A stretch of 64,000 nucleotides of DNA, taken from Pseudomonadota bacterium (GTDB lineage Bacteria > Myxococcota_A > UBA9042 > CAIXZC01). The notes beneath the pieces are model-generated. The model did no database searches. It was not told where the DNA came from and worked only from the letters and a program-made list of their open reading frames with translations. The number at the start of each line of letters is the position of its first letter. The first letter of the stretch is position 1. Location of the stretch: the NCBI GenBank assembly GCA_043815665.1, contig JBDRIT010000099.1, positions 15,987-79,986 of the forward strand, in the 5' to 3' direction. Both the position numbers and the translations under genes were made by a program. Shown here piece by piece: positions 9,941 through 44,356 of this stretch.

Positions 9941-9954
9941 CTCGTGACTGCTCC

Positions 9955-11073: not shown

Positions 11074-11169
11074 CAAACACCTCCTCCCGCCCCGGGATTT
11101 GCCCTTCCCCGCGGACCCGGCGACGGGTATATTCACTGTTATTCGACCCGGACACTCGGAGGGGAAGCG

Positions 11170-13106: not shown

Positions 13107-13111
13107 GGGGG

Positions 13112-14047: not shown

Positions 14048-14128
14048 CGAACCCCCCACCCCGGCAGGCCGGGCGTCGGTGAGTATAGCGACACTCATCG
14101 GAGGGGCCAATGAAAATCGGGGGCGGCG

Positions 14129-14158
14129 TTGACCCCCTCCTTCCGTTCTATGTATACT
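14129..14158 (+). promoter_or_regulatory. Putative sigma70 promoter of the C25 surface-protein locus
   Basis: TTGACC-N18-TATACT, 42 nt upstream of ATG 14200. Confidence 0.45.
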
Positions 14159-14199
14159 TCTGCGGTTTGACGCCTCGATCCGGGGAAGGAGTGACAACC

Positions 14200-17100
14200 A
14201 TGCACGCCCGCCTGCTCGGTCTCGCCCTCCTGGTCTGCATGTCCCCGAACCCGGCGAAGGCAACGCCCACGTGGGTGGGCCTCGAGCGGGAGGCCCCTGA
14301 CGACGGGACCCCCTGGTCGATCCAGCTGCAGCGCCTCGACGGCGATCTCGTGCGGGTGGAGATGACCCTGGACGGCTTCCTCCGCGTCCCCGTCGACCAG
14401 GGCGGCTCCCGGTTCGAGGAGATCCGCCTCCCCGGCGCCGGCACCACCCGGACCCCGGGTCTCCCGGCCCTTCCCATGCTCCGGCAACGCCTCCTCGGCG
14501 CGCTGGACGGCACGCCACAGATCCTCCAGATCGAGGCAGACACCGTGCGCATCGACGACGTCATCCCCGCCCCGCACACCCCGCGACCCAAGCGCTGTGG
14601 CGGTGAGTGGTCCGAACGCACGACCTGCGACGCGGAGTGGTACCAGTCCGGGGAGGTCTTTCCCGAGACCTGGGCCGAGGTCCACCGGGGGGGCCTCCTG
14701 CGCTCGATCCCCGTGGTGGAGCTCACCCTGTCCCCGTTCCGCTACCACCCCGCGACCCGGGAACTGGAGGTCGCACGCCGCCTGGTAATCACCCTCTCCA
14801 TGGCCCCACTGGACGGCGCAGCCCTGCCCGCTCGGGCCTTCTCCCGGCCCTTCACGGAGGAGGTGAAGCGCACGTTCCTGGACCCGTTCCCGGCGCTCCG
14901 GGAGGGCCCCCAGGGAGCGACGGAGCGCCTCCTCGTCCTGGCCCACGACGACCTGGCCCCGGCCTTGGACGAGTACATCACCTGGAAGCGCAACTCCGGC
15001 CTGGACGTAGACCTGGTGCTCCTGAGCTCCGTGGGATCGACCTGGACCGATGTCGCTCAGTTCCTGTCCGACGAGTACTTCGACGCAGCCGTCGCGCCCA
15101 CCTACGTGCTCCTGGTGGGAGACGGGGAGGGCCCGACCACGGTGCCTTACGTGCCCAGCCCCTTCGGCTGCGCGTCGGACTTCCTCTACACCACCGTGGA
15201 CGGAGGGGACCTCTACTCCGACTTCCTCATCGGGCGCTTCTCCGCGGACGCCCTCTCCCAGGCAGCCCTCCAGGCCGGGAAGGTGATCTGGTACGAGCGG
15301 GACCTGCTCCCCGAGGCGGGGTCCTGGGTCCCGCGCTCGATCTGCATCTCCTCCAGCGAGGGCTCCGGCGGATCCAACGACGACGTCCGCTCGGACATCG
15401 TCTGCGGTCTGCAGGACGCCGCGGGGTACGAGACCTCCAAGCTCTACAACTCCATGGGCAACGACACCGCGGCCAACATCTCCTCTTCGATCAACGAGGG
15501 GTTGGGCTGGATCACCTACCTCGGGCACGGCTCCGGGACCTCCTGGGCCACCACCAGCCCGCCCTACAGCAGCAGCCACATCACCCAGCTCCAGAACACG
15601 GATATGCTGCCGGTGATCATGGACGTCTCCTGCTCCAACGGCGGGTTCGACAGCGGGGACGGCGACTGCTTCGCCGAGGCCTGGCTGAAGACCGGGGCGG
15701 TGGGGGACCTCCGGGCTGCGATCGGCTCCTACTCCGCGTCCACCCCCGCCGCCTGGGACGAGCCAGCGGAGATGGCCATCGGCTTCGCCAAGGCGATCCT
15801 CGAGGAGGACATCTCCCGCTACGGAGAGGCCTGCCTCTTCGCCCGGGGCTACATGATGGACGTGCTCCCGGGGTACGGCTCCATCGAGGAGGTCTGTCAC
15901 CAGTACGTGATCTTCGGGGATCCCTCGCTCCAGCTCCGCTCCGAGGTGCCCTGGACCCCCGAGGTCCAGCTCCCCGCGGTGATCCCCGTGGGCCTGCCGA
16001 GCATCGAGGTGACCGTGACCCGGGCCGGCCTCCCCGCGGTGGGGGCCTCGGTGGTGGCGCGGAAGGGCGCAGAGTTCTACACCGCGGCGCTCACCGGTGC
16101 GGACGGCGTGGCCGTCCTGGCCATCACACCCGTCGCGCCGGGCACGGTGGAGGTGTGGGTCACCGCACCCAACGCGGCCACGTGGGAGGGGACGGTCCTG
16201 GTCACCGCCACGGGCTGCGGCGTCCTCCTCGCTGCCCCGAAGATGATCGGCTGCGACGGGACCCTGTCCTTCACCCTCTTCGACGAGGATCTCAACCTGT
16301 CAGCGGGGCAGGCGGAGACGATCCAGATCCTGGCCGCCGCGGGGGGCGCACCGATGGCGTTCACCCTCACCGAGGACGGCCCCGACGCGGGCAAGTTCAC
16401 CGGCACCCTCCCCCTCTCCGCCACCCCCCACCAGGGCAAGCTCGTGGTCGCGCACGGAGACACGGTCACGGCGAGCTACACCGACGCGGACTGCGACGGC
16501 GCGCCGGCCATGGCCTCCGTGGAGGTGTTGGTGGACTGCCTCTCCCCCGGGATCAGCGACGTCTCGTTCGACGAGATCACCGCGGGGAGCGCCCGGGTCC
16601 TGTTCACCACCGACGAGCCCGCCGACGGCCTGGTCCGGTACGGTGCTCAGACGCCCCCGTCCACCGATGTGTCCGGCCCGGCGGGCGCCACGGCCCACCA
16701 GATGGTGCTCGGCCCCCTCGAGCCCGCCACCACCTACTCCGTGGAGATCCGGGCCCAGGACGCTGCGGGCAACCTCGCCGTGGACGACGCCGGGGGCGCC
16801 TACCACGTCTTCACGACGCCGAGCTGCACCCCCCAGTGCGCGGGGAAGCAATGCGGCGACAATGGGTGCGGAGGGGTCTGTGGATCCTGCTGTGCGGACC
16901 AGGTCTGCCAGGGCGGCCAGTGCGTCGGCGGCCTGGGCTGTGAGGCCACGGACGAGAGCGGCTGCGGCGGCTGCCCCTGCGAGGTCTGCGTCTGCGAGAT
17001 GGACGCCTACTGCTGCAACGGGCAGTGGGACGATATCTGCGCGACGGAGTGCGTGGAGCACTGCGGCGGCTGCCCCACCGAGGGGGACTGCACCGAAAAG

Positions 17101-30290: not shown

Positions 30291-31103
30291 ATGGTCGGGA
30301 TGGACCCCGCCGAGCAACGCAGCATCCATGGAGCGACGATCCTGGGTCTGGTCCTGGTGAGCGCGCTCCTTCTCCTGGAGGTCCGCCCGCTCCTCGACGA
30401 AGTCCGCGGCGCCGCCCTCCTCGATCGGGAGGCGCTGGAGTCCATCTGGACCTACATCAACACCCTGAATACGGGGTTCACCTTCGCGGTCCTCTTCGCC
30501 GTCCTCTTCGTCTCCGGCGCGGGCATCCCCATCCCCGAGGACCTCCCCCTCACCTTCACCGGGATCCTCCTGAGCCTGCCACAGACCGCGGCCTACTTCG
30601 GGGGCTTCATCCCCGCCCTGGTGACCACCGGCTCCATGATCTACATCTCGATCATCACCGGGGACCTCGTCGCGTACTGGCTGGGCCACAGGTTCGGCAG
30701 GGACATCGCCAGCTGGCGCGGGCTGCGCCGGGCCCTGAGTCCGAAGCGGCTGGCCCGCCTGGAGCGCTGGTTCGCACGTTACGGAAACTGGGCGGTGTTC
30801 CTCGGCCGCATGATGGCCGGGGTGCGCTTCGTGACCTTCGTCAGCGCGGGGATCGCCCGGATGCCGGTGCATCGCTTCGTCATCTTCGACACCCTCGCCT
30901 CCCTGATCACCGTCCCCGCGTGGATCTACCTGGGGTACATGATCGGGACCCACTTCGACCGGCTCAAGGTCTGGATGGGCCGGGTCAACACCACGACCTG
31001 GATCATCGCCGCTGCTGGAATCCTGGCCTTCTTCGTGGTGCGGAAGATCCTGCAACGTCGCAGGGAGCGCGAGACCGAGGCCAACCCCCCTCAGTCGGGC
31101 TGA
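30291..31103 (+). CDS. DedA family membrane protein
   Basis: GIPIPED, GDLVAYWLG, FARYGNWAVFLGR..GVR..AG. Confidence 0.88.
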   Translation: MVGMDPAEQRSIHGATILGLVLVSALLLLEVRPLLDEVRGAALLDREALESIWTYINTLNTGFTFAVLFAVLFVSGAGIPIPEDLPLTFTGILLSLPQTAAYFGGFIPALVTTGSMIYISIITGDLVAYWLGHRFGRDIASWRGLRRALSPKRLARLERWFARYGNWAVFLGRMMAGVRFVTFVSAGIARMPVHRFVIFDTLASLITVPAWIYLGYMIGTHFDRLKVWMGRVNTTTWIIAAAGILAFFVVRKILQRRRERETEANPPQSG

Positions 31104-32065
31104 GTCAACGCGAACGCGGGAGCGAGGGCCGCGTCCAGGCCCGCGGTCCAGGCCTCCAGGCGGAAGGCACGAACCCAGACGGCGAGGGGCGCGTCCGAGG
31201 CCTGGATGACCGCCAGCTGGGCCCCGTACCAGCCCCTGATCCCCGCCCGGGGATCGCCGCCGACCGCATCGAGTTCACCGCATCTGGCCTGCAGGATCCG
31301 CCCGGCGGCGCCGCGGCGCCCGGTGTCATGGACCACCCCCTCCATGAGGCACTGGCCCATGATCTCGGCGTCGGGATCGGGCAGACAGAGCACGGCCATG
31401 AGGCCCGCCGCACCCCGGGGGCAGGGGAAACCGAGGGTGGTCAGGACGTGACCCCGCCAGTTCCGTGGGCCCGGACGGAGCAGCTCCCCCAGACGCACCA
31501 TCGCCGCGCGGTGCGCGTACCGACCGTCGAGCGCTGTCTCCAGCTCGACCAGGGTCTTGAGGAGGCGGTCCTTCTTCACGAAGACGACGGCCTGGACATC
31601 CCGGAGGAGGCCCGACATCAGCGCTGCACGCACGGCCCGGGGATCGTCGTCCCCGAGCTCCCGGTGGACCAGGTCGAAGATCTCCTGGATCTCCTGGGCA
31701 AGGATCTGGAGGTTCCGGGGCCGGTCGAGGCCCCCCTCCAGCTCCCAGTCGGTCACAGCCTCCAGGGTCTCGGCCAGCAAGGGTTCGCCCGTGGCCCGGG
31801 CCGCGAGGAAGAGGTCCGTGAGGGCCTCGGCCTGGAGGAGGAACGCGTCCATGGCCACGTCCTTCGCCACGCCCTCGGCCTTCGGGAGCGCCCGGAGCGC
31901 GGCGATCCCCTCCTGGAACCGCGGCCCGAAGTCATAGGGGTCGAGGAGCTCCCGTGCCCGGGACAGCTCCGCCTCGGGGGTCCTGGGCGGGGCGTCGTCC
32001 CCGCCCTTGCAGCCCACCAGCGTGAGAAGGAGCAGGCAGGTTGTCGTGGAGCGAAGGCCGATCAC
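31091..32065 (-). CDS. Hypothetical lipoprotein
   Basis: GTG overlaps the upstream stop; LLLLTLVGC lipobox; several Cys in the C-terminal half. Confidence 0.6.
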   Translation of the reverse strand: MIGLRSTTTCLLLLTLVGCKGGDDAPPRTPEAELSRARELLDPYDFGPRFQEGIAALRALPKAEGVAKDVAMDAFLLQAEALTDLFLAARATGEPLLAETLEAVTDWELEGGLDRPRNLQILAQEIQEIFDLVHRELGDDDPRAVRAALMSGLLRDVQAVVFVKKDRLLKTLVELETALDGRYAHRAAMVRLGELLRPGPRNWRGHVLTTLGFPCPRGAAGLMAVLCLPDPDAEIMGQCLMEGVVHDTGRRGAAGRILQARCGELDAVGGDPRAGIRGWYGAQLAVIQASDAPLAVWVRAFRLEAWTAGLDAALAPAFALTQPD

Positions 32066-32484
32066 TTCTTCTTGCACTCGGCCATGAGGTTCAGGAGGCC
32101 GGCGCGCTGCTTCTCCCACCACACGGGCACCGCCTCCTTGAACCACTGGTCCTTCTCGAGGAAGGCCTTCGCCGAGGCGTAGCCGTGGCGCGCCAGGATC
32201 GGCAGGTAGTACTTGATCCGCGTGTCGTCGTTCTCGACCATCATCTTGAGCTGCTCCACGGGCTCGTGGATCGTCGCGTAGTCGTCCAGGGGATCGTAGT
32301 CGAGGTTGATCCGACAGGCCAGCTCCCGGTAGCAGTCGGCGAAGGCCTGTCGCTCCGGCGACACCTCCTTGTTGTCTGCCACCGCCACGGGCGCCGGCTT
32401 CGGCTCCACCTTCACCACCTGGCCGCTGCCGCCGCAGGCGGCCGCAAACAGGGCGAACATCGCGAACGTGATGAGCATCTTCAT
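32062..32484 (-). CDS. Hypothetical lipoprotein
   Basis: AAGGAGGA RBS; MKMLITFAMFALFAAAC lipobox. Confidence 0.7.
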   Translation of the reverse strand: MKMLITFAMFALFAAACGGSGQVVKVEPKPAPVAVADNKEVSPERQAFADCYRELACRINLDYDPLDDYATIHEPVEQLKMMVENDDTRIKYYLPILARHGYASAKAFLEKDQWFKEAVPVWWEKQRAGLLNLMAECKKK

Positions 32485-32664
32485 CAAGGGTCCTCCTTGG
32501 GAACAGATCCTCAGATCTTCCTGACGACTCCAAGCTACGCCGGGCCGAGGGGGCCGTCAACCCCGCTGAGTCCCGGGGACATCGCGCTCCCGTCATCCTT
32601 GAGCTGCCCATCCGGCTCTGCCGGACGAGGTGGTGTTCAGAAACAAATGCACGGCGGACGGTTT

Positions 32665-32711
32665 TAACCAGCGTAACCTGATATAACCAGCGCAGCCTCA
32701 CTTAACCAGCG
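32665..32711 (+). repeat. Three direct repeats of TAACCAGCG with exact 19-bp period
   Basis: Copies at 32665, 32684 and 32703; 8-mer AACCAGCG again at 32873. Confidence 0.85.
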
Positions 32712-32947
32712 AGTGATATCAACGATCTCCAGTAACGACGTAGGGTGCCTTCCACCTTCACACGGTGGAAGTCACAAATCCTCCCGTCGTCCATGGCAAC
32801 CGGAGGCCCTGCCCGATTCTTCGCTTGGCAAGGACGGGTACAGGTCCGGTCGATTTTCATGCGGATTGCGTGAACCAGCGCTCAATGGCGAGGTGAAAAC
32901 CGACCGGACCTGTACCCGCACATGCAACATCGCAACTGCGTTTGGCA

Positions 32948-33253
32948 TCATCGCGGAAAGTGAAAGTGACCGGAACCGTCCCCGAGTCCGCTGAGCACCA
33001 CCCGCGCCGGGAGGAAGGGAAACTCCCGGGAGGTGTCATCGAGCACACCCGCCGCCAGGCGAACGTCATCGGCGGTCACCAGCGCGCCGTCCTCGTGGCG
33101 CAGGGCCCCCTCCAGGAGGATCCGGCGGGAGTACGGGAGGCGGGCGAGATCGGCCACGCCGCGCTCCTCGAGGGCGCCCAGCCGAAAGTACCGCGCCGCA
33201 CCCGCAGAGGTCTCGAGACGGGACAGCGTCCCAAAGGTATCTTTGGATTCCAT
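32948..33253 (-). pseudogene. acnA: 5' fragment of aconitate hydratase AcnA
   Basis: YFRLGALE..LARLPYSRRILLE.ALR.EDG..VT..D..EFPFLPARVVL matches the AcnA N-terminus; breaks off before QDFTG and stops after about 101 aa. Confidence 0.85.
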
Positions 33254-33372
33254 GGGCATCAGCTCCTCGGGTTCAACTGTTCGAAGGAGACACGAAGAAT
33301 AGGGGCCCCCTCCGGCCGATTCAAGCCCGCCGAGGGGCGGCCGTGAATGCACCAAACACCGCCGACGACCCG

Positions 33373-33405
33373 AGAAATGAGCCATCGACTTGATGGCTCA
33401 TTTCT
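33373..33405. promoter_or_regulatory. Perfect 14-bp inverted repeat (operator or hairpin) between the divergent acnA' and acn genes
   Basis: AGAAATGAGCCATC-gactt-GATGGCTCATTTCT. Confidence 0.7.
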
Positions 33406-33513
33406 GATATACGACGCCTTGGCCCGGGAATAGTGGTTGCAACTTTTCGTTCCCTGGTGAGTAATCCGGTTCGGGGACCAAAAACTGTTTGAACGCTGAG
33501 GGGAGGTAGCGCA

Positions 33514-35457
33514 ATGAGCGGCAAGAACGTGGCGAGGAAGATTCTCGAGTCCCATATCGTCGAAGGCAAGTGGGCCCCCGGCGAAGAGATCGCCATCAGA
33601 ATCGATCAGACCCTGACCCAGGACGCGACGGGAACAATGGCCTACCTCCAGTTCGAGGCCATGGGGCTGCCCCGGGTGAAGACCGAGCTGAGCGTCAGCT
33701 ATATCGATCACAACACGATCCAGATCGGCTACGAGAACGCGGACGACCACAAATACCTCCAGGGCGTGGCCTCGAAGTACGGCATCTTCCTCTCCCGCGC
33801 GGGCAACGGAATCTGCCACCAGGTCCATCTCGAGCGCTTCGGAAAGCCCGGCAAGACCCTCCTGGGTTCGGACAGCCACACGCCCACCGGCGGCGGGATC
33901 GGCATGATCGCCATGGGCGCGGGCGGCCTCGACGTCGCGGTTGCCATGGGCGGCGGCTCCTTCTACCTCACCTGCCCGAGGGTGGTGAAGATCCACCTCA
34001 CCGGGAAGTTGTCCCCCTGGGTCGCGGCCAAGGACGTGGTCCTCAAGGTGCTCGAGATCTTCAGCACCAAGGGCAACGTGAGCACGATCTTCGAGTACGG
34101 CGGGCCGGGTGTGGCCAGCCTCACGGTCCCGGAGCGGGCCACGATCACCAACATGGGCGCCGAGTGCGGCGTGACCACGTCGGTCTTCCCCAGTGACGGT
34201 GAGACCCTCCGGTTCCTCAAGGCCCAGGCCCGCGGAAGCGACTGGGTGGAACTCCTCCCCGACGCCGATGCAGCGTACGATCGCGTCGTTGAGATCGATC
34301 TCGGCGCGGTCGAGCCCATGGCTGCCGCGCCCCACAGCCCCGGAAACATCAAGACCGTCCGGGAGATCGCCGGGATCGCCGTGGACCAGGTGGCCATCGG
34401 GAGCTGCACCAACTCCTCCTACGTGGACCTCACCACCGCGGCGCGCATCCTCAAGGGGAAGACCATCAACCCCGCGGTGAGCCTGATCATCGCCCCCGGA
34501 TCCCGCCAGGTGCTGACCATGCTGACCAAGGAGGGCTCCCTCTTCGACCTCCTGTCCGCGGGGGCGCGCCTCGCCGAGAACACCTGCGGTTTCTGCATCG
34601 GGAACAGCCAATCCCCCAAGTCGGACGCCGTCTCGATCCGGACCTCGAACCGCAACTTCCTGGGCCGCTCCGGGACCAAGTCGGCCCAGGCCTACCTGGT
34701 GAGCTGCGAGACCGCCGCTGCGGCGGCGCTGACGGGGAAGCTCACGGATCCGAGGACCCTGGACATGGAGTACCCCGTGGTGGCCATGCCGGATTCATTC
34801 CTGGTGGACGACTCGATGATCGTCGCCCCGTCGGCCGAACCCGAGTCTGTGACCATCGTCCGGGGACCCAACATCGGCGATCCCCCGGTCAACGGCCCGC
34901 TCCCGGACACCCTGGACGCCAAGGTCGGGATCCACGCGGGGGACGAGATCACCACGGACCACATCATCCCCGCCGGCGCCCGCATGAAGTACCGCTCCAA
35001 CGTCCCGAAGTACTCGGAGTACCTCTTCGAGATCTACGATCCGGACTTCTACGGGCGGGCCAAGGCGATCAAGGAAGAGGGGCTTCAGGACGTCTTCGTC
35101 GCCGGGCTGAGCTACGGCCAGGGCTCGAGTCGGGAGCACGCCGCCCTCTGCCCGATGTACATGCAGGTGAAGGCGGTCATCACGAAGTCCTTCGAGCGGA
35201 TCCACATGGCCAACCTCGTGAACTTCGGAATCGTCCCCTTCGTCTTCGCCGACGTCGCCGACTACGAGCGGGTCCAGCAGGGAGACCGGCTGCAGATCGT
35301 CAACCTCCGGAGCTGCATCGCCGGCGACGGCAAGGCCCTGGTGAAGAACCTCACCCAGGGGACGGAGTTCGGGGTCACCACGGACCTCTCCGAGCGGGCC
35401 AGCCGGGTTGTCCTGGCCGGGGGCATGCTCAACTACATCAAGGAGCAGACAGCGTAA
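33514..35457 (+). CDS. Aconitate hydratase, short (~650 aa) type
   Basis: TQDATGTM, YIDHN, GNGICHQ, GSDSHT, GSCTN, CGFCIG (Fe-S Cys), TSNRNF, ITTDHI, GQGSSREHAA. Confidence 0.9.
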   Translation: MSGKNVARKILESHIVEGKWAPGEEIAIRIDQTLTQDATGTMAYLQFEAMGLPRVKTELSVSYIDHNTIQIGYENADDHKYLQGVASKYGIFLSRAGNGICHQVHLERFGKPGKTLLGSDSHTPTGGGIGMIAMGAGGLDVAVAMGGGSFYLTCPRVVKIHLTGKLSPWVAAKDVVLKVLEIFSTKGNVSTIFEYGGPGVASLTVPERATITNMGAECGVTTSVFPSDGETLRFLKAQARGSDWVELLPDADAAYDRVVEIDLGAVEPMAAAPHSPGNIKTVREIAGIAVDQVAIGSCTNSSYVDLTTAARILKGKTINPAVSLIIAPGSRQVLTMLTKEGSLFDLLSAGARLAENTCGFCIGNSQSPKSDAVSIRTSNRNFLGRSGTKSAQAYLVSCETAAAAALTGKLTDPRTLDMEYPVVAMPDSFLVDDSMIVAPSAEPESVTIVRGPNIGDPPVNGPLPDTLDAKVGIHAGDEITTDHIIPAGARMKYRSNVPKYSEYLFEIYDPDFYGRAKAIKEEGLQDVFVAGLSYGQGSSREHAALCPMYMQVKAVITKSFERIHMANLVNFGIVPFVFADVADYERVQQGDRLQIVNLRSCIAGDGKALVKNLTQGTEFGVTTDLSERASRVVLAGGMLNYIKEQTA

Positions 35458-35511
35458 GGACTGCTGCTCGGAGATCGACGGAAATCATGGGCACCAACTA
35501 AGGAGTTGAAG

Positions 35512-36777
35512 ATGGCACAGAAGGGAATCAGAGAGTACGACGCCAAGCGGATGCTGGCGCGCAACCTGGAGAAGTACTTCGGTGGAACCTACGGTTATCA
35601 GGGCCAGATCGTCCTGACCGATCAGGGAACCGACTGGGACGCGCTCGCGGCGCAGAACCCGTGGCTCCTCAACACTCCGCTCGTCGCCAAGCCGGATCAG
35701 CTCTTCGGCAAGCGGGGCAAGCACGGGCTCCTCTACGTCAACAAGTCCTACGCCGAGGTGAAGGAGTGGATTCAGGGGCGGATGGAGAAGGAGGTCACCG
35801 TCGGGAAGACCACCGGCACCCTCACGCACTTCATCATCGAGCCCTTCGTGCCCCACGACAACGAGTACTACGTCGCGATCAAGTCGACCGTGACCGGGGA
35901 CACGATCTTCTTCTCGACCCAGGGCGGCATCGACATCGAGTCCGTGTGGGACACCGTGGTCGAGATCCCCGTGGCGGTGGACGAAGACGTCGAGGACATC
36001 GACATCGGCGCCAGGCTCCCCGTGAGCCTGGGCGATGCGAACAAGGCCCTGGTGGCGAACTACATCAAGGGCCTCTTCAAGTTCTACGTCGACTTCCACT
36101 TCGCCTACCTGGAGATCAACCCCTTCGCGGTGAGCGGCGACCAGGTCATCCCCCTGGATCTCGTGGCCAAGCTCGACGACACGGCCCAGTTCGAATGCGT
36201 CGTGCAGTGGGGAGACCTCTCCTTCCCAGCGCCCTTCGGCCTCCAGATGAGTCCCGAGGAGGCCTACATTCGGGACCTGGACGAGAAGACCGGCGCCTCC
36301 CTGAAGCTCACGGTCCTCAACAAGGACGCCCGGATCTGGTCCCTCGTCGCGGGGGGCGGCGCCAGCGTGATCTTCGCGGACACCATCGCCGACCTCGGGG
36401 CCGCCGGGGACCTTGCCAACTATGGTGAGTACAGCGGGGATCCGAGCAAGGAGTTCACCTACGAGTACACCAAGACCGTGCTCGACCTGATGACCCGGAC
36501 GAAGCACCCGGACGGCAAGGTCCTGCTCATCGGCGGCGGCATCGCCAACTTCACCGACATCGCCAAGACCTTTGCGGGCATCATCCAGGCGCTGACGGAG
36601 TATGCCGTTCGTCTCGCCGATCACGGCGTCAAGATCTACGTGCGCCGCGCAGGTCCCAACTACCAGGAGGGCCTCCGGCTCATGCGGGAGCTGGGGGAGC
36701 GGACTGCGCTCCCCATCGAGGTCTACGGACCCGAGACCCACATGACGAAGATCGTCTCCATGGCCCTGGGCAAGTAG
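35512..36777 (+). CDS. aclB: ATP-citrate lyase beta subunit (ATP-grasp plus citrate-binding domain)
   Basis: MAQKGIREYDAK, LVAKPDQLFGKRGKHGL, YLEINP, ASLKLTVLN, VAGGGAS, NYGEYSG, GGGIANFT, GPNYQEGL. Confidence 0.93.
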   Translation: MAQKGIREYDAKRMLARNLEKYFGGTYGYQGQIVLTDQGTDWDALAAQNPWLLNTPLVAKPDQLFGKRGKHGLLYVNKSYAEVKEWIQGRMEKEVTVGKTTGTLTHFIIEPFVPHDNEYYVAIKSTVTGDTIFFSTQGGIDIESVWDTVVEIPVAVDEDVEDIDIGARLPVSLGDANKALVANYIKGLFKFYVDFHFAYLEINPFAVSGDQVIPLDLVAKLDDTAQFECVVQWGDLSFPAPFGLQMSPEEAYIRDLDEKTGASLKLTVLNKDARIWSLVAGGGASVIFADTIADLGAAGDLANYGEYSGDPSKEFTYEYTKTVLDLMTRTKHPDGKVLLIGGGIANFTDIAKTFAGIIQALTEYAVRLADHGVKIYVRRAGPNYQEGLRLMRELGERTALPIEVYGPETHMTKIVSMALGK

Positions 36778-36782
36778 GAGGA

Positions 36783-38639
36783 ATGACAATGGAGAATTAC
36801 AGGCTGTTCGACAGAAATACCCAGGCGGTGATTTTCGGACTTCAGACCAACGCGATCCAGCGCATGCTGGACTTCGACACCATCTGCAAGCGGGATCTCC
36901 CCAGCGTGGCCGCCATCATCAACCCCACCTCCAAGGGCGGGCTGCACAAGGCCTTCTTCGCGAAGACCGAGGTCATGATCCCGATCTACCGGACCACAGG
37001 AGAGGCCCTGAAGGCCAACCCGGCCATCGACACCATGGTCAACTTCGCGTCCTTCCGCTCCGCCTATCCGACGACTATGGAGGCCCTGGATCATGATCAG
37101 CTGCGGGTGATCGCGGTCATCGCCGAGGGCATCCCGGAGCGTTACTCCAAGGCCATCCGCGCCAAGGCCCAGAAGAAGGGCGGCAAAATCCTCATCGGAC
37201 CCGCCACCGTCGGCGGCATGACCGCGGGGGCCTTCAAGATCGGCAACTCCGCCGGCATGCTCGACAACATCATCGAGTGCAAGCTGCACATGAGCGGCTC
37301 CGTCGGCTTCGTCTCGAAGTCGGGCGGACTCTCCAACGAGGCCAACAACATCATCGCCCGGAACGCGGACGGTCTCTGCGAGGGCATCGCCATCGGCGGG
37401 GACCGCTACCCCTTCAGCACCCTGTCCGAGCAGCTCATCCGCATGAACAAGAACCCGGACATCAAGATGCTGGTGCTCCTGGGCGAGGTCGGCGGCGAGG
37501 ACGAGTACTTGGTCATCGAGGCCATGAAGAATGGCCAGATCACCAAGCCCATCGTGGCCTGGTGCATCGGAACCTGCGCGGACATCTTCCCTGATGGGGT
37601 CCAGTTCGGCCACGCTGGCGCCCGCGCCGACGCCTCCCGGGAGACGTCCAGGGTCAAGAACAAGGCCCTCGCCGAGGCCGGGGCGATCGTCCCCGACTCC
37701 TTCGACGACTATGGTCTCAAGATCAACCAGGTCTACAAGAAGCTCGTCGCGGACGGCGTGATCATCGAGAAGCCTCTGCCTGCGCCACCCACGATCCCCA
37801 AGGACCTGAAGACCGCCCTCGCAGACGGCTCGGTACGCAAGGCGGCGAACTTCGTCTCCTCCATCTCCGACGATCGGGGCGACGAGCTGGCCTACGGCGG
37901 GCCCTACGGCGATCCGCGGTCCATGACCATCTCCGAAGTGTTCGAGAAGGACATCGGCCTGGGCGGCGTCATCAGCCTCCTCTGGTTCAAGAAGCTCCTG
38001 CCCCCCTGGGCGACGAAGTTCATCGAGATGGTCATCTGCATGACCGCGGATCACGGCCCCGCCGTGTCCGGCGCGCACAACGCCATCGTCACCGCGCGGG
38101 CGGGCAAGGACGTCATCTCCTGCATCGTCTCCGGCATGATGACCATCGGCCCCCGGTTCGGCGGCGCGGTGGCGGGCGCGGCGACCAACTTCAGCCAGGC
38201 CTTCGAGAGCGGCCTGAGCCCCCTGGAGTTCGTCACCAGCATGAAGAAGGCCGGGGCCAACATCCCGGGCATCGGGCATCGCATCAAGAGCGTGCAGAAC
38301 CCCGACAAGCGCGTGGAGCTCCTCGTCGACTACGGCAAGAAGAACTTCCCATCGACGACCCTCCTGGACTACGCCCTGGAGGTCGAGAAGATCACGACGT
38401 CCAAGCGCAACAACCTGATCCTCAACGTCGACGGCTGCATCGGGATCCTCTTCGTCGATCTGATGCACGCCTCGGACATGTTCTCCAAGGCGGAGATCGA
38501 CGAGGTCCTCTCCATGGAGGGCTTGAACGCCCTCTTCGTCCTGGGTCGTACCATCGGCATGATGGGACACGTGTTCGATCAGAAGCGGCTCAAGCAGCCC
38601 CTCTATCGGCACCCCTGGGACGACATCCTGTACATCTGA
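36783..38639 (+). CDS. aclA: ATP-citrate lyase alpha subunit
   Basis: MLDFD, NFASFRSA, IAEGIPE, IGPATVGG, QFGHAGA (phospho-His), ADHGPAVSGA, GIGHRIKS, LILNVDG, YRHPWDDI. Confidence 0.93.
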   Translation: MTMENYRLFDRNTQAVIFGLQTNAIQRMLDFDTICKRDLPSVAAIINPTSKGGLHKAFFAKTEVMIPIYRTTGEALKANPAIDTMVNFASFRSAYPTTMEALDHDQLRVIAVIAEGIPERYSKAIRAKAQKKGGKILIGPATVGGMTAGAFKIGNSAGMLDNIIECKLHMSGSVGFVSKSGGLSNEANNIIARNADGLCEGIAIGGDRYPFSTLSEQLIRMNKNPDIKMLVLLGEVGGEDEYLVIEAMKNGQITKPIVAWCIGTCADIFPDGVQFGHAGARADASRETSRVKNKALAEAGAIVPDSFDDYGLKINQVYKKLVADGVIIEKPLPAPPTIPKDLKTALADGSVRKAANFVSSISDDRGDELAYGGPYGDPRSMTISEVFEKDIGLGGVISLLWFKKLLPPWATKFIEMVICMTADHGPAVSGAHNAIVTARAGKDVISCIVSGMMTIGPRFGGAVAGAATNFSQAFESGLSPLEFVTSMKKAGANIPGIGHRIKSVQNPDKRVELLVDYGKKNFPSTTLLDYALEVEKITTSKRNNLILNVDGCIGILFVDLMHASDMFSKAEIDEVLSMEGLNALFVLGRTIGMMGHVFDQKRLKQPLYRHPWDDILYI

Positions 38640-38774
38640 GAGGCCACACAGCTCATGTACGACGGCTGCACGCAGTTCTACTCGGCCGGGAACAATCTGA
38701 CCACGGACCTGGGCGGCGACGGAACGACAAACAGCGTCGGCGCCGCGGTGCAGGAGATCATCCGCGCCGGATAG
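38640..38774 (+). pseudogene. 3' remnant of an isocitrate/isopropylmalate dehydrogenase-family gene
   Basis: Translates EATQLMYDGCTQFYSAGNNLTTDLGGDGTTNSVGAAVQEIIRAG*; LTxDLGGxxTT is the family's C-terminal signature; no N-terminal part present. Confidence 0.65.
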
Positions 38775-38807
38775 GATCTTCCGTCAGAGCCGCGGGGGGA
38801 GTTCTAC

Positions 38808-41800
38808 ATGGCCAGAAAGACGTGGCAGGACATCTACGCCGACAAGCTGGTCCCCCCTCAGGAGGCCCTCTCGAGGATCCGGAGCGGTCAAACCATCTTC
38901 GTCGGAGCCGGCGCATCGGAGCCCCTCCTGCTCTCCGATGCGCTGGCAGACATGGCCAGGCAGTTCGCGGACATCGACATCATCCGCCTCTTTGCGCCGG
39001 GCAAGAGATCCAGGCTCGCCGATCCGGATCTGGCTCGGAGCTTCCACACCAACACCTTCTACCACGGCCGCGGGGTCTCCGGGGTGAAGGTCAACGCCAT
39101 CGGCGACTACACCCCCATGAACCTGGTGGATCTCCCCCGGGCGTTCACCTCGGGGATCGTCCGCGTCGACGCAGCCCTCGTTCAGGTGGCCCCGCCCAAC
39201 GCGCTCGGTCTCTGCAGCCTCGGGGTCTCCGTGGACGCGACGAAGGCCGCCGTGGAGAGCGCCCCCCTGGTCATCGCCCAGGTCAACGAGAACATGCCGG
39301 AAACCACTGGGGATTCCCTGATCCCCGTGGACAGCATCGACTTCCTCGTGGAGGGAACGGCGGAGCTCTCCGAGGTACCCATCACCGAGATCGACCCGGT
39401 GTCCCTCACCATCGGACGGCACATCGCCGGCCTCATCGAGAACGGGATGACCCTCCACTTCGACCGGGGTCCCATCGGGGCCGCCACCATGCGGTACCTG
39501 GACACCCGGCGGGACCTTGGGATCCACACGGACATCCTCACCGACGACATCCTGCGCCTCATCGAGTCCGGCGCCATCAACAACCGCAAGAAGCGGGTCC
39601 ATAAGGGGAAGACCATCGCGACCACGGCCCTGGGGACCCGGCGCCTCTACGATGCCGTGAACCAGAGCCCCGCCATTGAGTTCTACCCCGTGGACCACGT
39701 CAACGACCCCTGGGTCATCGCAGAGAACGACGAGATGGTGTGCGTCCACGCCATCCAGCGGATCGAGCTGACGGGCCTGGCCCGGATGGATGACGAATAT
39801 GTCACCCAGAGGCAGAACCTCCCGAGCAGCACGGACTTCGTCCACGGCGCCAGGCGCTCGAAGAACGGATTCAATATCATGGCCCTCCCATCCACCACCG
39901 AGGACGGACGCCAGTCCCGGATCGTGGGCCTCAGCATCGGCCGGGGGGCTGCGATCCCGCGGTCCATGGCGGAGTATGTCGTCACGGAGTACGGGATCGT
40001 CAACCTCTTCGGGCTGTCGATCCGGGAGCGCGCCATCGCGCTGATCTCCATCGCCCATCCGAAGTTCCGCGGCCAACTCCAGGACGAAGCCCGGAAATTC
40101 GGCTACGTCGGCCCCGAGGAGATCGTGGCGCCGGATTCTGGTCGGCTCTACCCCCACCATTATGAGTCCACCCACACCTTCGACGACGGCACCGAGGTCT
40201 TCTTTCGCCCTGTCCGCCCGGGGGACGCGAGGAGACTGCAGCAGCTCTTCTACTCCCTCTCCCCGGAGGCGACGCGCCTGCGGTACCACGGAACCAAGAG
40301 CGCCCTCCCCAGAGGAGAAGCGCAACAACTGGCGACAGTGGACTACAGCCAGGACATGGCCATCGTCGGGCTGGTGGGCCCCCGCGCGAACCCGTGGATC
40401 GTCGGGGAGGGCAGATATACCTACAATCCGGCCAACAACATGGGGGAGTTCGACATCGTGGTCCACGGGGAGTACCGGGGACGCGGCGTAGCGACCTTCC
40501 TGGCGGCCTACCTCAACAAGATCGCGTACTCCGCCGGCCTCTCCGGGATGTACGCCCTGGTCATTCAGCAGAACTCCGGAACCATGGCTCTCCTGAACAA
40601 AGCCTGGCCGACGGCCCTGAAGACCTTCGATTCCGGAGTCTGCACCTTCACGGTTCGCTTCCCGGAGGACGACGTCAAGCGGCCCAAGGACAGCATCTTC
40701 ATCTACTCCGGCCGTTTCAGCGAACACAGCTTCGGCGAGAATCATCCCTTCGATCCGAGTCGGGCCCGGGAGACCCGCAGGACGATCGTCGAAGGAGGCA
40801 TGCTCAACGAGCCGTGGATCCGGGAAGAGGAACCCGTCATGATCCCGAAGGAGCGCCTCGTCGAATCCCACAACCCTGAGTACATCGACGCCCTTGAGGC
40901 GGCCGATCCGAACGAGTGGCGGGATGAGCTCATCCTGTTCAATCTGGGGACGGACGACTGTCCGATCTTCCACGGCCTCTTCGACTTCGTCCTCCTCTAC
41001 TCCTCGGCCACGGCGACCGGTGTCGACCTGATCATGAAGGAGAACGCCAACGTCGTCTTCAACCCCATCGGAGGGTTCCACCACGCCAGCCGATCCCGGG
41101 CGGAGGGCTTCTGCTACGTCAACGACGCGATCCTGGCCATCGACATGTTCCTCGCCGGAGGATACCGGGTCGCGTACGTCGACATCGACGCCCACCACGG
41201 CAACGGCGTCCAGGACGCCTACTACAAGGACGATCGAGTCCTCGTCATCTCCACCCACGAGAGCGGAGAGACCCTCTATCCATGGTCGGGCTTCGAGACC
41301 GAGATCGGAGAGGACGGCGGCGAGGGCTTCACCCTGAACATCCCGCTCCTCGCGGGCTGCGACGACGAGACGTTCCTGCGCGCCATCGACCGCCTGGTGA
41401 CCCCCGCGGTCACCGCCTTCGAGCCGACGGTGGTCGTGGCGGTCATCGGGACCGACACCCATCGCGCGGATCCCCTCTCCAACCTCTCGCTGACCAACAA
41501 CGGCATGTTCTCCGCGGTGGAACGGATCCGGGAGTACAGCAAGCACCTGCTCCTCCTCGGTGGTGGCGGATACGAGACCCGCACCGCGTCACGAGGATGG
41601 AGCCGGATGTGGGGCGCTGCGAACCGCATCGGGTCCCTCCCGGACTGGCTCCTCCTCATGGGGGGTCGCTTCCTGGAGGGCAGCTCCATGGATGGCGGCA
41701 GCAGCATCGTCGACATGAACTACGTCGTCTCCGGAAAGGCAAAGACAGAGATGTTCGCAGATCTGGACAGGATCATCGCGTTCCACGAGGAGCACACGCT

Positions 41801-41831
41801 CCCGCGCATCCGCACCCGGTTCAAGAGCTGA
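38808..41831 (+). CDS. Triple fusion: acetyl-CoA hydrolase/CoA-transferase-like domain, GNAT acetyltransferase and AcuC/HDAC-family deacetylase
   Basis: aa ~1-430: SLGVSVD, IAQVN..MP.T.G, YVVTEYG, RA.ALI.IAHP.FR. aa ~450-620: FRPVRPGD, YRGRGVA motif A. aa ~630-1007: GGFHHA, GFCYVND, DIDAHHGNG, DTHRADPL, GGGGY. Confidence 0.9.
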   Translation: MARKTWQDIYADKLVPPQEALSRIRSGQTIFVGAGASEPLLLSDALADMARQFADIDIIRLFAPGKRSRLADPDLARSFHTNTFYHGRGVSGVKVNAIGDYTPMNLVDLPRAFTSGIVRVDAALVQVAPPNALGLCSLGVSVDATKAAVESAPLVIAQVNENMPETTGDSLIPVDSIDFLVEGTAELSEVPITEIDPVSLTIGRHIAGLIENGMTLHFDRGPIGAATMRYLDTRRDLGIHTDILTDDILRLIESGAINNRKKRVHKGKTIATTALGTRRLYDAVNQSPAIEFYPVDHVNDPWVIAENDEMVCVHAIQRIELTGLARMDDEYVTQRQNLPSSTDFVHGARRSKNGFNIMALPSTTEDGRQSRIVGLSIGRGAAIPRSMAEYVVTEYGIVNLFGLSIRERAIALISIAHPKFRGQLQDEARKFGYVGPEEIVAPDSGRLYPHHYESTHTFDDGTEVFFRPVRPGDARRLQQLFYSLSPEATRLRYHGTKSALPRGEAQQLATVDYSQDMAIVGLVGPRANPWIVGEGRYTYNPANNMGEFDIVVHGEYRGRGVATFLAAYLNKIAYSAGLSGMYALVIQQNSGTMALLNKAWPTALKTFDSGVCTFTVRFPEDDVKRPKDSIFIYSGRFSEHSFGENHPFDPSRARETRRTIVEGGMLNEPWIREEEPVMIPKERLVESHNPEYIDALEAADPNEWRDELILFNLGTDDCPIFHGLFDFVLLYSSATATGVDLIMKENANVVFNPIGGFHHASRSRAEGFCYVNDAILAIDMFLAGGYRVAYVDIDAHHGNGVQDAYYKDDRVLVISTHESGETLYPWSGFETEIGEDGGEGFTLNIPLLAGCDDETFLRAIDRLVTPAVTAFEPTVVVAVIGTDTHRADPLSNLSLTNNGMFSAVERIREYSKHLLLLGGGGYETRTASRGWSRMWGAANRIGSLPDWLLLMGGRFLEGSSMDGGSSIVDMNYVVSGKAKTEMFADLDRIIAFHEEHTLPRIRTRFKS

Positions 41832-41833
41832 CG

Positions 41834-44356
41834 CTACGCAACCTCGGGGGGCTCGTCGTCGCCCTCGGGGGTCGAGTGGAAGCGGGAGTCGTCGACCGCG
41901 GGGAACGGCTCGGTCTCGTCCTCTTCCTCGTCATCCTCGGCCAGCCGCTCCAGCCCGATGACCCGCTCACCCTTCTCGAGGTTGATCAGCTTCACGCCCT
42001 GGGTGTTCCGGCTCAGGACGGGGATCTCGTTCACCCGGGTGCGGATGATCTTGCCGCCGTCCGTGGCGAGCATGACGTTGTCCTCGTCGAGGACCTGGAT
42101 CGCACCTGCCACGAGGCCGTTGCGCTCGGAAGTCTTGATCGTGATGATGCCCGTCCCGCCCCGGTTCTGGATACGGTACTCCTCGGGGCTGGAGCGCTTT
42201 CCGTAGCCCAGCTCGGAGACCGAGAGGATCGTCTCCTGCTCGTTCAGGACCTCGGCGCCGACCACCTCGTCCCCCTTGCGCAGGCGGACGCCGCGGACGC
42301 CGCGGGTGGCCCGGCCCATCTGCCGGGCGTCGTCGACGTTGAAGCGGATCGACATGCCCTGACGGGTCACCAGGAGAATCTCCTGGTCATCCCGCACCTC
42401 CCGGGCCCGGATCAGATCGTCGTCCTCGTCGAGACGCAGGCCGATGATCCCCGTAGATCGGATGTTGGTGTAGTCGGTCTGCGCGGTACGCTTCACGTAG
42501 CCCTTGCGGGTCACGGTGAGGATCGAGTAGCCCTCCTTGAGCTCCCGCAGACGAACGATGGCCTTGGGGATCTCACCCTTCACGACGGGGATCAGGTTGA
42601 TGATCGGACGGCCCCGCGCGGAGCGTCCGGCCTCGGGGATCTGGAAGACCTTGAGCTTGTAGACCTTCCCGACGCTGGTGAAGATCAGCAGATCGTCGTG
42701 GGTGGACGCGACGAAGAGCTTCACCACGAAGTCCTCTTCCTTGGTCGTCATCCCCATCTTTCCCCGACCGCCGCGGCGCTGGCTGCGGTACAGGGAGATT
42801 GGCGTTCGCTTGACGTAGCCCGTCGAGGAGATGGTCACCACCATCTCCTCCTCCGCGATGAGATCGAGGATGTCGATGTCCCCGAGGTCGTCCACGATCT
42901 CGGTGCGGCGCTCGTCCCCGAACCTCTCCCGAACCTCCCTCAGCTCGCCGATGATCACGTTCAGCATCACCACCTGGTCGGCGAGGATCTGCTTGAGACG
43001 TGAAATCTCCGCCCGGACCGCCTCGAGCTCCTCGAGGATCTTGTCACGCTCCATCCCGGTGAGCCGGTGCAGACGCAGGTCCAGGATGGCCTTGGCCTGG
43101 ATCTCAGAGAATTCGAACTGCCCCTGGAGGGCGATCTCGGCCTCGACGCGGTCCTTGGACCTTCGGATCAGCTCGATGATCGCGTCGATGTTGTCCAGCG
43201 CGATCTTGAAGCCCTCGAGGACGTGGGCCCTCTCTTCTGCCTTGCGCAGCTCGAAGATCGATCGGCGGGTCACCACGTCCCGGCGGTGATCCACGAAGCG
43301 CTCGAGCATCTGCTTGAGGTTGAGGACCTTGGGCTGGCCCTGGTCGATGGCCAGCATGTTGATCCCGAAGGAGGACTGCATGGGGGTATGCGCGAACAGG
43401 GAGTTCAGCACCACGTCGGAGATCGCATCCTTCTTCAGGTCGATCACCATGCGCATGCCGTCGCGATCCGACTCGTCCCTGAGGTCGCTGATGCCGGTGA
43501 GGATCTTGTCCTTCACCAGCTCGGCCATGCGCTCCAGGAGCTTGGCCTTGTTCACCTGATAGGGCAGCTCCGTGACGACGATCGACTCGCGGTCCGTGCG
43601 CTCGCTGCGCTCCATGTGGACCCGCGCCCGCAGCTTGATGACGCCACGGCCCACCTGGTACGCGGACAGGATCCCTGCGCGTCCATAGATGAAGCCCGCG
43701 GTGGGGAAATCGGGGCCGGGGACGATCCGCATCAGATCGAGGATCGTGCAGTCGGGGTTCAGCGCGACGTGGACCGTTGCGTCGATGATCTCCCGCATGT
43801 TGTGGGGCGGGATGTTGGTGGCCATGCCCACCGCAATACCGGAGGAGCCGTTGACCAGCAGGTTGGGGAAGCGGGCAGGGAGAACCATGGGCTCCCGGAG
43901 GGAGCCGTCGTAGTTCTCCCCGAAATCCACGGTCTCCTTTTCGAGATCCGCCAGCATCTCGCTCGCGAGACGTTCCATGCGGACCTCGGTGTACCGCATC
44001 GCCGCAGGCGGATCGCCGTCGACGGATCCGAAGTTCCCCTGGCCGTCCACCAGGAGATAGCGCATGGAGAAGTCCTGGGCCATACGCACGATGGTGTCGT
44101 ACACCGCCTGGTCACCATGGGGGTGATACTTTCCGATCACGTCACCGACGACGCGAGCGCTCTTCTTGTACGCCGTGGACCATGTGTTCCGCAGCTCGCT
44201 CATCGCGAAGAGCACGCGCCGGTGCACGGGCTTCAAGCCGTCCCGCACATCGGGCAACGCGCGCCCCACGATGACGCTCATCGCGTAGTCGAGGTACGAG
44301 GTTCGTACCTCCTTGACGATGTTGACTGGAATGCCTTTCCTGGTCGTCTGGTCCAT
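41834..44356 (-). CDS. gyrA: DNA gyrase subunit A
   Basis: [27 protein letters not shown]; GyrA-box QRRGGRG distinguishes it from ParC. Confidence 0.97.

Follow-up and report, generated by a model that had tools for sequence, protein, structure and literature searches.

A single gene on the plus strand of the window (the whole 64,000-nt stretch of contig JBDRIT010000099.1, assembly GCA_043815665.1, whose positions are used throughout for the fusion gene) encodes a 1007-residue protein in which a class I CoA-transferase fold whose active site has been remodelled, a GNAT acetyltransferase domain and a zinc-dependent histone deacetylase (HDAC) domain are fused. Judging from sequence comparisons, this protein is probably, though by no means certainly, a single-chain enzyme of the Pat/AcuA-AcuC type for the reversible acetylation of lysines in acetyl-CoA-forming enzymes, with its N-terminal domain (N-domain) as a putative non-catalytic regulatory module. 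In the mechanism that we propose, the central GNAT (the writer) would acetylate a lysine of an acetyl-CoA-forming enzyme with acetyl-CoA as the donor, the C-terminal zinc deacetylase (the eraser) would strip the acetyl mark, and the N-domain, without CoA-transfer chemistry, would serve as a ligand-binding or oligomerising module that sets the balance between the two. Reciprocal control of writer and eraser would be expected, because their joint action on one lysine amounts to acetyl-CoA hydrolysis. ATP-citrate lyase (ACL), encoded directly upstream, would be the likeliest client in this genome, a possibility that we put forward tentatively; elsewhere the client would be an AMP-forming acetyl-CoA synthetase (Acs) or an ADP-forming one (ACD), depending on the genome. 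A more specific version, in which a pocket with H217, D219, R220 and D242 would read a metabolite (acetyl-CoA/CoA, citrate or acetate) and reciprocally gate writing and erasing on ATP-citrate lyase, we regard as doubtful.

The fusion gene and its parts lie as follows:
38808–41831, plus strand: three-domain fusion gene P0001 (translation, Pfam, homologue search)
38808–40112, plus strand: N-domain, residues 1–435, 4-hydroxybutyrate-CoA-transferase-like fold with remodelled active site (Pfam, PDB sequence search, fold search)
39456–39470, plus strand: H217-F-D219-R220-G221 in place of the Q-x-G-x-G loop (PDB alignment, homologue alignment)
39531–39533, plus strand: codon of Asp242, at the position of the class I CoA-transferase catalytic Glu (PDB alignment)
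39819–39839, plus strand: L338-PSSTDF-344 in place of the glycine-rich GGQxDF motif (PDB alignment, homologue alignment)
40188–40667, plus strand: GNAT domain, residues 461–620, with E547 and RGRGVA 557–562 (Pfam, PDB alignment)
40743–41615, plus strand: HDAC/AcuC-like domain, residues 646–936 (Pfam, PDB alignment, fold search)

Translation of 38808–41831 gives one frame with zero internal stops, in which Pfam recognises AcetylCoA_hydro (PF02550; residues 9–182, E 1e-14), AcetylCoA_hyd_C (PF13336; residues 276–428, E 6.6e-43), GNAT models over residues 464–598 (Acetyltransf_1 at E 1.2e-5, above its cut-off, and Acetyltransf_3 at E 6e-5, its 24.2 bits lying slightly below the 25.4-bit cut-off) and Hist_deacetyl (PF00850; residues 646–936, E 1.1e-74). 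These results bear out the three domains in a single open chain that an earlier note had read from the bare letters. A search of a 5.8-billion-cluster protein collection returned 272 proteins at E ≤ 0.001 among 8000 scored candidates, and the 120 listed relatives, 53–71% identical and 861–1103 aa long, all share the architecture, with the CoA-transferase C-domain and an HDAC domain in 120 of 120. Because these proteins come from many separate assemblies and carry PF13336 and PF00850 together at that length, the fusion is not an assembly artefact. They are named only “GNAT family N-acetyltransferase”, “hypothetical protein” or with COG-style strings. A stop or frameshift hidden between the domains, which the earlier note had considered, is contradicted at the GNAT–HDAC junction, where read pieces with 0 differences (40554–40704 and 40681–40925, short contigs from three DNA runs that may be the window’s own sample) run across it; the short contigs over parts of the gene hold no insertion or deletion, and the clean pieces do not span the CoA-transferase–GNAT junction. 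A 920-aa open reading frame (ORF) on the minus strand (38784–41546) was taken as the usual antisense frame, since the plus frame has homologues at E = 0 and the gene has 68% G+C. AlphaFold2 modelled the whole chain with a mean pLDDT of 84.6 and a pTM of 0.84 (low-confidence stretches at 86–98, at 330–340 just before the former GGQ motif, at 833–838 and at 949–965), and the model suggests that the three domains hold a defined mutual arrangement.

The two C-terminal domains keep what their proposed activities would require. In the PDB sequence search, the GNAT with its preceding linker best matches 9it0_A, a “Protein acetyltransferase” of 886 aa (E 4.9e-11), followed by 9isq_A (“Protein acetyltransferase”, 877 aa, E 6.9e-11), 4nxy (E 3.6e-8), 4u5y (E 7.1e-8), 4ava (“lysine acetyltransferase”, E 5.6e-6), 4orf (“Acetyltransferase Pat”, E 7.7e-6) and 3f8k (E 5.9e-4). 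All solved relatives at E < 0.001 are protein acetyltransferases, and small-molecule GNATs appear only at E ≥ 0.05 (spermidine, diamine and aminoglycoside acetyltransferases at E 0.1–0.4). E547 lines up with the Glu in “DAEFAV” of 9it0, which we take to be the catalytic Glu809 of Pat, and the position holds Glu in 104 and Asp in 13 of the 117 homologues aligned (see below), while RGRGVA 557–562 fits the acetyl-CoA-binding R/Q-x-x-G-x-G/A motif, with G560 kept in 116 of the 117. The domain therefore shows the marks of a Pat-type enzyme (GNAT fold, acetyl-CoA motif, protein-acetyltransferase relatives and a Glu at the catalytic-base position), as the earlier note had recognised. The protein falls outside class I-alpha, in which an NDP-forming acyl-CoA-synthetase-like domain accompanies the GNAT, since its N-domain is a CoA-transferase fold, and the NCBIfam model “acetyltransferase Pat” (mycobacterial) is hit at E 3.5e-14 with 52 bits, far below its cut-off of 460. 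In the HDAC domain, the zinc ligands (D794, H796, D883), the tandem His (H758, H759) and the catalytic Tyr (Y922, in GGGGY) are all present and each is kept in 116–117 of the 117 homologues, so that the retention of catalytic motifs claimed for this domain holds across the family. Its best 60 solved matches are class I HDACs (HDAC2/1/3), Rpd3, Clr6 and HDLP, and the HDAC part of the model matches HDAC2 with a template modelling (TM) score of 0.86 in the fold search. According to PMC11532494, the AcuC/class-I cluster (cluster 2) bears XGGLHH and (G/A)GGY, whereas other clusters bear RPP or XGGY; IGGFHH (Phe for Leu) and GGGGY of the fusion protein fit the AcuC/class-I pattern.

The N-domain retains its fold, and its active-site motifs are changed. 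Its first 445 residues match solved 4-hydroxybutyrate CoA-transferases (best 9vag_F, E 3.9e-92, PDB sequence search), Foldseek aligns its model with CoA-transferase structures at TM 0.86–0.94 on the targets (2oas_A: E 2.6e-43, TM 0.89), and Pfam, PDB and Foldseek agree on the two-domain alpha/beta fold of class I CoA-transferases with full-length homology. In the PDB alignment, however, the window protein reads LHFDRGPIG where the enzymes read lqmGiGaiP, GIHTDI where they read GvHTEm, and LPSSTDFVHGA where they read gfGGQlDFirGA. The catalytic Glu is thus Asp242 and both the G-x-G loop and GGQxDF are replaced (LHFDRG, LPSSTDF); the three altered motifs, and the placing of D242 at nt 39531, had been given correctly in the earlier note. 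The NCBIfam butyryl-CoA:acetate CoA-transferase model scores 179 bits against a cut-off of 675.

These changes are shared by the family. In an alignment of 117 full-length homologues (4 of 121 sequences were excluded for length), position 242 is Asp in 105, Glu in 7, Leu in 2, and Ala, Gly and Ile in 1 each, which shows the Glu-to-Asp exchange to be conserved, and the seven proteins with Glu242 do not regain the other canonical motifs. H240 and T241 are kept in all 117, H217 in 113, D246 in 111 and D219 in 110. The mean pairwise identity is 0.69 over residues 201–275, which carry the active-site changes, 0.68 in the HDAC domain, 0.63 in the GNAT and 0.56–0.59 in the remaining N-domain; “degenerate”, as the domain had been called at first, is thus a misleading word for what is (at 69% vs. 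68% for the HDAC) the best-conserved part of the protein. In RipA, Glu249 is catalytic and forms the acyl-anhydride and the CoA thioester, and the adjoining loop Gly226-Val227-Gly228 gates the acyl-CoA pocket (PMC3180442). Going by spacing, D219-R220-G221 appears to occupy the place of this gating loop, so that His, Asp and mostly Arg are apparently fixed in the former thioester pocket. As H217, D219, D242 and D246 are newly fixed, they speak for a new function under constraint, and the active site looks repurposed rather than decayed. The N-domain may bind acyl-CoA or CoA and tilt the two activities, by analogy with the non-GNAT domain of Pat and with AcuB.

The same residues could be taken to mean that the N-domain is a working acyl-CoA (acetyl-CoA) hydrolase by virtue of the Glu-to-Asp exchange, in which case the protein would drain acetyl-CoA and the GNAT and HDAC would be accessory or independent. 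In class I enzymes this exchange abolishes CoA transfer and permits hydrolysis (PMC12400318, citing Mack and Buckel 1997); Asp is fixed in 105 of 117 homologues, the fold is fully retained, the changed region is strongly constrained, and acetyl-CoA hydrolysis would likewise be the net outcome if GNAT and HDAC shared a lysine. Such an enzyme would, however, have to work with both the G-x-G loop and GGQxDF replaced, in a family where five of 117 members have Leu, Ala, Gly or Ile at position 242 and seven keep Glu with the other motifs not restored, and beside ATP-spending acetyl-CoA-forming enzymes it would create a futile cycle. Because the glycine-rich motifs are gone and these five proteins are without a carboxylate at 242, which members of the family can thus do without, we rate a non-catalytic N-domain, with a probable ligand-binding or structural role, above a hydrolase, which we consider unlikely.

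The distribution of the family was followed in a locus scan of one genome per prokaryotic species, retrieved via HDAC peptide patterns (loci numbered L001 onward), which yielded 80 loci, 43 of them with a three-domain gene, all with record titles of metagenome-assembled genomes. Bacterial labels comprise Myxococcales/Myxococcota/Deltaproteobacteria, Polyangia, Planctomycetota, Latescibacteria, Fibrobacterota, Krumholzibacteriia, Nitrospirales and Aminicenantes, and seven loci carry the label Thermoplasmata, Thermoplasmatota or archaeon; bin labels of the kind “Enterobacterales” or “Bacteroidaceae” are not trustworthy. Among the 13 species genomes of the window’s own order, four have a full-length match and one more has the split form described below.

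Proteins of about 620 aa that combine only the CoA-transferase and GNAT domains are far commoner. All 120 listed matches of a second search are two-domain, in agreement with the earlier statement that such fusions exist, and all 8000 scored candidates of that search lay at E ≤ 0.001, a set not limited to two-domain forms. They are named only “GNAT family N-acetyltransferase” or “acyl-CoA hydrolase/GNAT” and share 33–40% identity with the first two domains of the three-domain proteins. At the fetched loci they keep canonical or near-canonical motifs (QxGIG-like, HTE/HSE, GGQ/GGSxDF), with the exceptions of L052, a degenerate form directly after acn-aclB-aclA, and L053, whose catalytic position reads HTR and whose glycine-rich motif reads ISGMVDF. 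In a quick maximum-likelihood tree (57 rows, shared 610 residues, LG+G4, SH-aLRT only; partial rows L001, L033–L035, L037, L043, L044 and L059 left out), 40 three-domain rows form one clade (SH-aLRT 100, stem of 0.77 changes/site) among the two-domain forms, and the long rows L052 and L053 are placed with uncertainty. The three-domain clade thus appears, with good support, to be derived among two-domain proteins, and as this one clade sits among canonical two-domain forms, the loss of the motifs goes with the acquisition of the HDAC. Two-domain proteins with canonical motifs may be active CoA-transferases.

Related genes occur elsewhere in the window’s own genome and at other loci. Contig C138 (128761–132727) carries a 618-aa two-domain paralogue 13 bp after an ADP-forming acetyl-CoA synthetase gene, with the canonical motifs TIQVGIGVIP, GIHTE and GGQVDF, and ends ~770 bp beyond. 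On contig C242 (24057–25367) lies an unfused 436-aa CoA-transferase-family protein with GVFSD for GIHTE and altered glycine-rich motifs, from which it follows that Asp-bearing variants of the fold also occur unfused. At L017, L019 and L020 (~7900–15400), Acs is followed 4–19 bp on by a three-domain gene with Glu242 and the other motifs changed, and the next gene, convergent on the opposite strand, encodes a canonical two-domain CoA-transferase+GNAT protein.

In the window, the fusion gene is the last of a plus-strand row and convergent with gyrA; the genes ahead of it are:
33514–35457, plus strand: aconitase gene, first of the row (Pfam)
35506–36777, plus strand: aclB, ATP-citrate lyase beta subunit (Citrate_bind E 9.9e-86; Citrate_synth_N E 5.7e-82)
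36783–38639, plus strand: aclA, ATP-citrate lyase alpha subunit, 168 bp upstream of the fusion gene (Pfam, PDB)
38655–38774, plus strand: 39-codon relic of the 3' end of an Iso_dh-family gene (Pfam, DNA alignment with L001)

The relic matches, at 79% identity, the C-terminal end of an ORF of the Iso_dh family (isocitrate/isopropylmalate dehydrogenase) in L001, the closest relative, where the complete gene separates aclA from the fusion gene (L001 293–2074). The DNA alignment shows a clean ~1.64-kb gap in the window, and no further copy of this protein was detected in the window’s genome at E ≤ 1e-5 (tblastn). Apparent frameshifts in L001 that would have made its gene a broken one were set aside, as they coincide with runs of N (4330–4375 and 4633–4642). 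A scan of 32600–42200 found no plus-strand terminator-like site between aclA and the fusion gene, which is weak evidence; the scanned region has 6 terminator-like sites vs. 5.1 expected and 0 promoter-like sites. No Rfam family reached its gathering score in 32500–42500, and no CBS/ACT gene adjoins the fusion gene in the window. Upstream of the aconitase gene, a 536-aa ORF (31091–32701, minus strand) has no Pfam match at E ≤ 1e-5 and, given the 68% G+C, may not be a real gene. Also upstream of the aconitase gene, the 14-base hairpin word CGGGTACAGGTCCG occurs at 32835–32848 (plus strand) and 32905–32918 (minus strand), an inverted pair 57 bases apart in which both copies run into a T-rich tail. 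Past the window’s right end, the same contig (C99, 80882–82951, minus strand) carries an ADP-forming acetyl-CoA-synthetase-like gene, 31% identical to the ACD of L056 and ~23 kb downstream of the fusion gene.

Neighbouring genes were clustered as stop-to-stop ORFs of at least 90 aa from 59 loci and the window (60 sources). The recurrent families are AMP-forming Acs (9 sources), AclA (8), ADP-forming acetyl-CoA synthetase (8), an MFS transporter (7) and a PAS/HAMP histidine kinase (6), with phosphofructokinase, glycosyltransferase, NuoF-like proteins and LarA in smaller families of 3–4 loci each. An acetyl-CoA-forming enzyme is encoded in the flank covered in 13 of 44 three-domain loci (ACL in 7, Acs in 5, ACD in 1) and in 8 of the 22 that have at least 5 kb on both sides. 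The association with acetyl-CoA-forming enzymes is real, far from universal, and the only functional theme. ACL is a neighbour in at least three separate parts of the clade (the window with L003, L031, and L030 with L042) and of L052. All nine adjacent Acs proteins contain RSGKIMR, the acetylation-site motif of Bacillus subtilis AcsA (PMC11532494). At 12 loci the system is split, a two-domain gene lying beside a separate HDAC gene in either order; the fullest split version, L041 (5483–14864, labelled Verrucomicrobiota), has in this order an ADP-forming acetyl-CoA synthetase, a two-domain CoA-transferase+GNAT protein, an HDAC, an AMP-forming Acs and an MFS protein. The switch proposed in the earlier note is strengthened by these recurrent Acs, ADP-forming acetyl-CoA synthetase and ATP-citrate lyase neighbours as far as a role in protein acetylation is concerned, and the tilting of that switch by a sensor domain stays at the level of a conjecture.

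The protein could also be an acetylase/deacetylase of proteins with broad or different clients, its place next to ATP-citrate lyase being historical and not functional. Gene order does vary, from the 168-bp gap here to 2.3–4.6 kb on the other strand (L031, L037) and 2.6 kb (L042), the Iso_dh-family gene stands between aclA and the fusion gene in L001, and the same genome has an Acs with RSGKIMR on contig C127. This reading nevertheless seems improbable to us, since the rare ACL recurs in at least three parts of the clade, archaeal-labelled loci included, as well as beside the degenerate two-domain form of L052, and since (as weak evidence) no plus-strand terminator-like site separates aclA from the fusion gene. 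Less probable still is a metabolic cycle with a small-molecule substrate for both GNAT and HDAC (for instance a polyamine, an amino sugar or an acetoin-pathway intermediate), for which it can be said that both superfamilies include small-molecule enzymes, that 14 of the 22 well-flanked three-domain loci are without an acetyl-CoA-enzyme neighbour and that small-molecule activities accompany lysine acetylation in several small GNATs (PMC6456759), and which has to contend with solved GNAT relatives that are all protein acetyltransferases at E < 0.001 (others at E 0.1–0.4), an HDAC that matches class I HDACs and HDLP and not acetylpolyamine amidohydrolases, and a functional neighbour theme made up of known or plausible Pat/AcuA clients.

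Several points weigh against a reversible acetylation enzyme for acetyl-CoA-forming enzymes, in addition to the hydrolysis that a Glu-to-Asp exchange can permit. The Pfam scores of the GNAT domain are modest. Thirty-one of the 44 three-domain loci, among them the 14 of 22 well-flanked ones, have no acetyl-CoA-forming neighbour in the flank covered, and 20 scanned flanking ORFs from 11 of these 14 loci are mutually unrelated by Pfam, including peptidase C69, GH130, a TonB receptor, MTHFR, asparagine synthase and PNPase (20 of 28 picked ORFs were scanned; the 8 left out are those of L040, L045 and L047 and those downstream in L039 and upstream in L013). How often HDAC genes lie next to two-domain genes is overestimated here, because the loci were retrieved via HDAC peptide patterns. 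We know of no precedent for the acetylation of a prokaryotic ATP-citrate lyase or ADP-forming acetyl-CoA synthetase. In human ACLY, acetylation of K540, K546 and K554 affects stability, not catalysis (PMC4905055). The window AclA has K56 at the position of K540, K61 one residue before the K546 column and R70 at that of K554, a correspondence that is only a lead, as the human sites act on protein stability. A complex prediction of AclA (5-row alignment) with the GNAT part (residues 440–640) gave no answer (score 0.00) and has no bearing on whether the two bind.

The standard example of bacterial metabolism being controlled through acetylation is the reversible lysine modification of acetyl-CoA synthetase, and ATP-citrate lyase is a key enzyme of reverse tricarboxylic acid (TCA) carbon fixation. 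To our knowledge, writer, eraser and sensor are separate proteins in every described case. What sets the present system apart is the fusion of writer and eraser, a CoA-transferase module that has been repurposed, and the tie to ATP-citrate lyase. A protein composed of CoA-transferase, GNAT and HDAC domains was not described in the literature searched (including the accessible parts of PMC11532494, PMC8556138, PMC6456759, PMC13121692 and PMC13039410; supplements and subscription journals lay outside the coverage), which agrees with the earlier note, to which no characterised example was known. In the same literature, no bifunctional enzyme that adds and removes lysine acetylation was found, and the two-domain CoA-transferase+GNAT proteins appear uncharacterised.

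Should the proposed function be right, writer and eraser can be fused under a single sensor within the chain, a GlnD- or AceK-like arrangement for acetylation, the Pat family would gain a third kind of CoA-enzyme-derived regulatory domain, and acetylation control would reach beyond Acs to ATP-citrate lyase and ADP-forming acetyl-CoA synthetase. The larger and equally unstudied two-domain family would be explained as well. If, moreover, the remodelled pocket does gate both activities on ATP-citrate lyase, the protein would represent the first fused lysine-acetylation writer-eraser and the first case of post-translational control of a prokaryotic ATP-citrate lyase, the acetyl-CoA exit of the reverse TCA cycle, in bacteria as well as archaea. 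The family is widespread (uncultured Myxococcota-like bacteria, Planctomycetota, Latescibacteria, Nitrospirales-labelled genomes and Thermoplasmata-labelled archaea), and its compact single chain would offer a convenient model for how opposing acetylation activities avoid a futile cycle.

Among known systems, AcuA/AcuB/AcuC-AcsA of B. subtilis is similar in that a GNAT writer and a class-I-like zinc deacetylase are encoded together by an acetyl-CoA-forming enzyme, the HDAC of the fusion bears AcuC-type motifs (PMC11532494), and Acs with RSGKIMR, as in the AcuA/AcuC target AcsA, is adjacent in 9 loci. It differs in that the fusion unites writer and eraser in one polypeptide, its GNAT belongs to the Pat clade and not to the small AcuA type, and a remodelled CoA-transferase domain holds third place with no CBS/ACT AcuB, the sensor module that controls the eraser AcuC (PMC13121692, PMC13039410). 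The window gene also neighbours aclBA, not acsA, with no separate acuA, acuB and acuC as in the operon.

With enterobacterial Pat (YfiQ/PatZ/Pka, class I-alpha), the fusion shares a large CoA-enzyme-derived N-terminal domain followed by a GNAT. The non-GNAT domain of Salmonella enterica Pat has a part in oligomerisation, in activity and in cooperativity with acetyl-CoA (PMC6456759), and by analogy the N-domain of the fusion may take the role of this inactive NDP-forming acyl-CoA-synthetase-like domain; unlike Pat, it has a class I CoA-transferase fold, and an HDAC domain is added. The 2019 classification of prokaryotic lysine acetyltransferases names NDP-forming acyl-CoA synthetase, ACT, cAMP-binding and NADP-binding domains and, in its accessible part, lists no fusion with a CoA-transferase or an HDAC (PMC6456759).

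AbfT and RipA (4-hydroxybutyrate and butyryl-CoA:acetate CoA-transferases) are homologous to the N-domain across ~430 residues and have the same predicted fold, whereas the fusion has Asp for Glu, a His-preceded D-R-G for G-x-G and SSTDF for GGQxDF. The two-domain CoA-transferase+GNAT proteins have the same kinds of neighbours (ACD, Acs and HDAC genes) but keep the canonical motifs and have no fused HDAC. GlnD, GlnE, AceK and HprK/P, in which metabolites set the balance of opposing activities, resemble the fusion only by analogy, in that one chain adds and removes a mark, and differ from it in chemistry and in fold.

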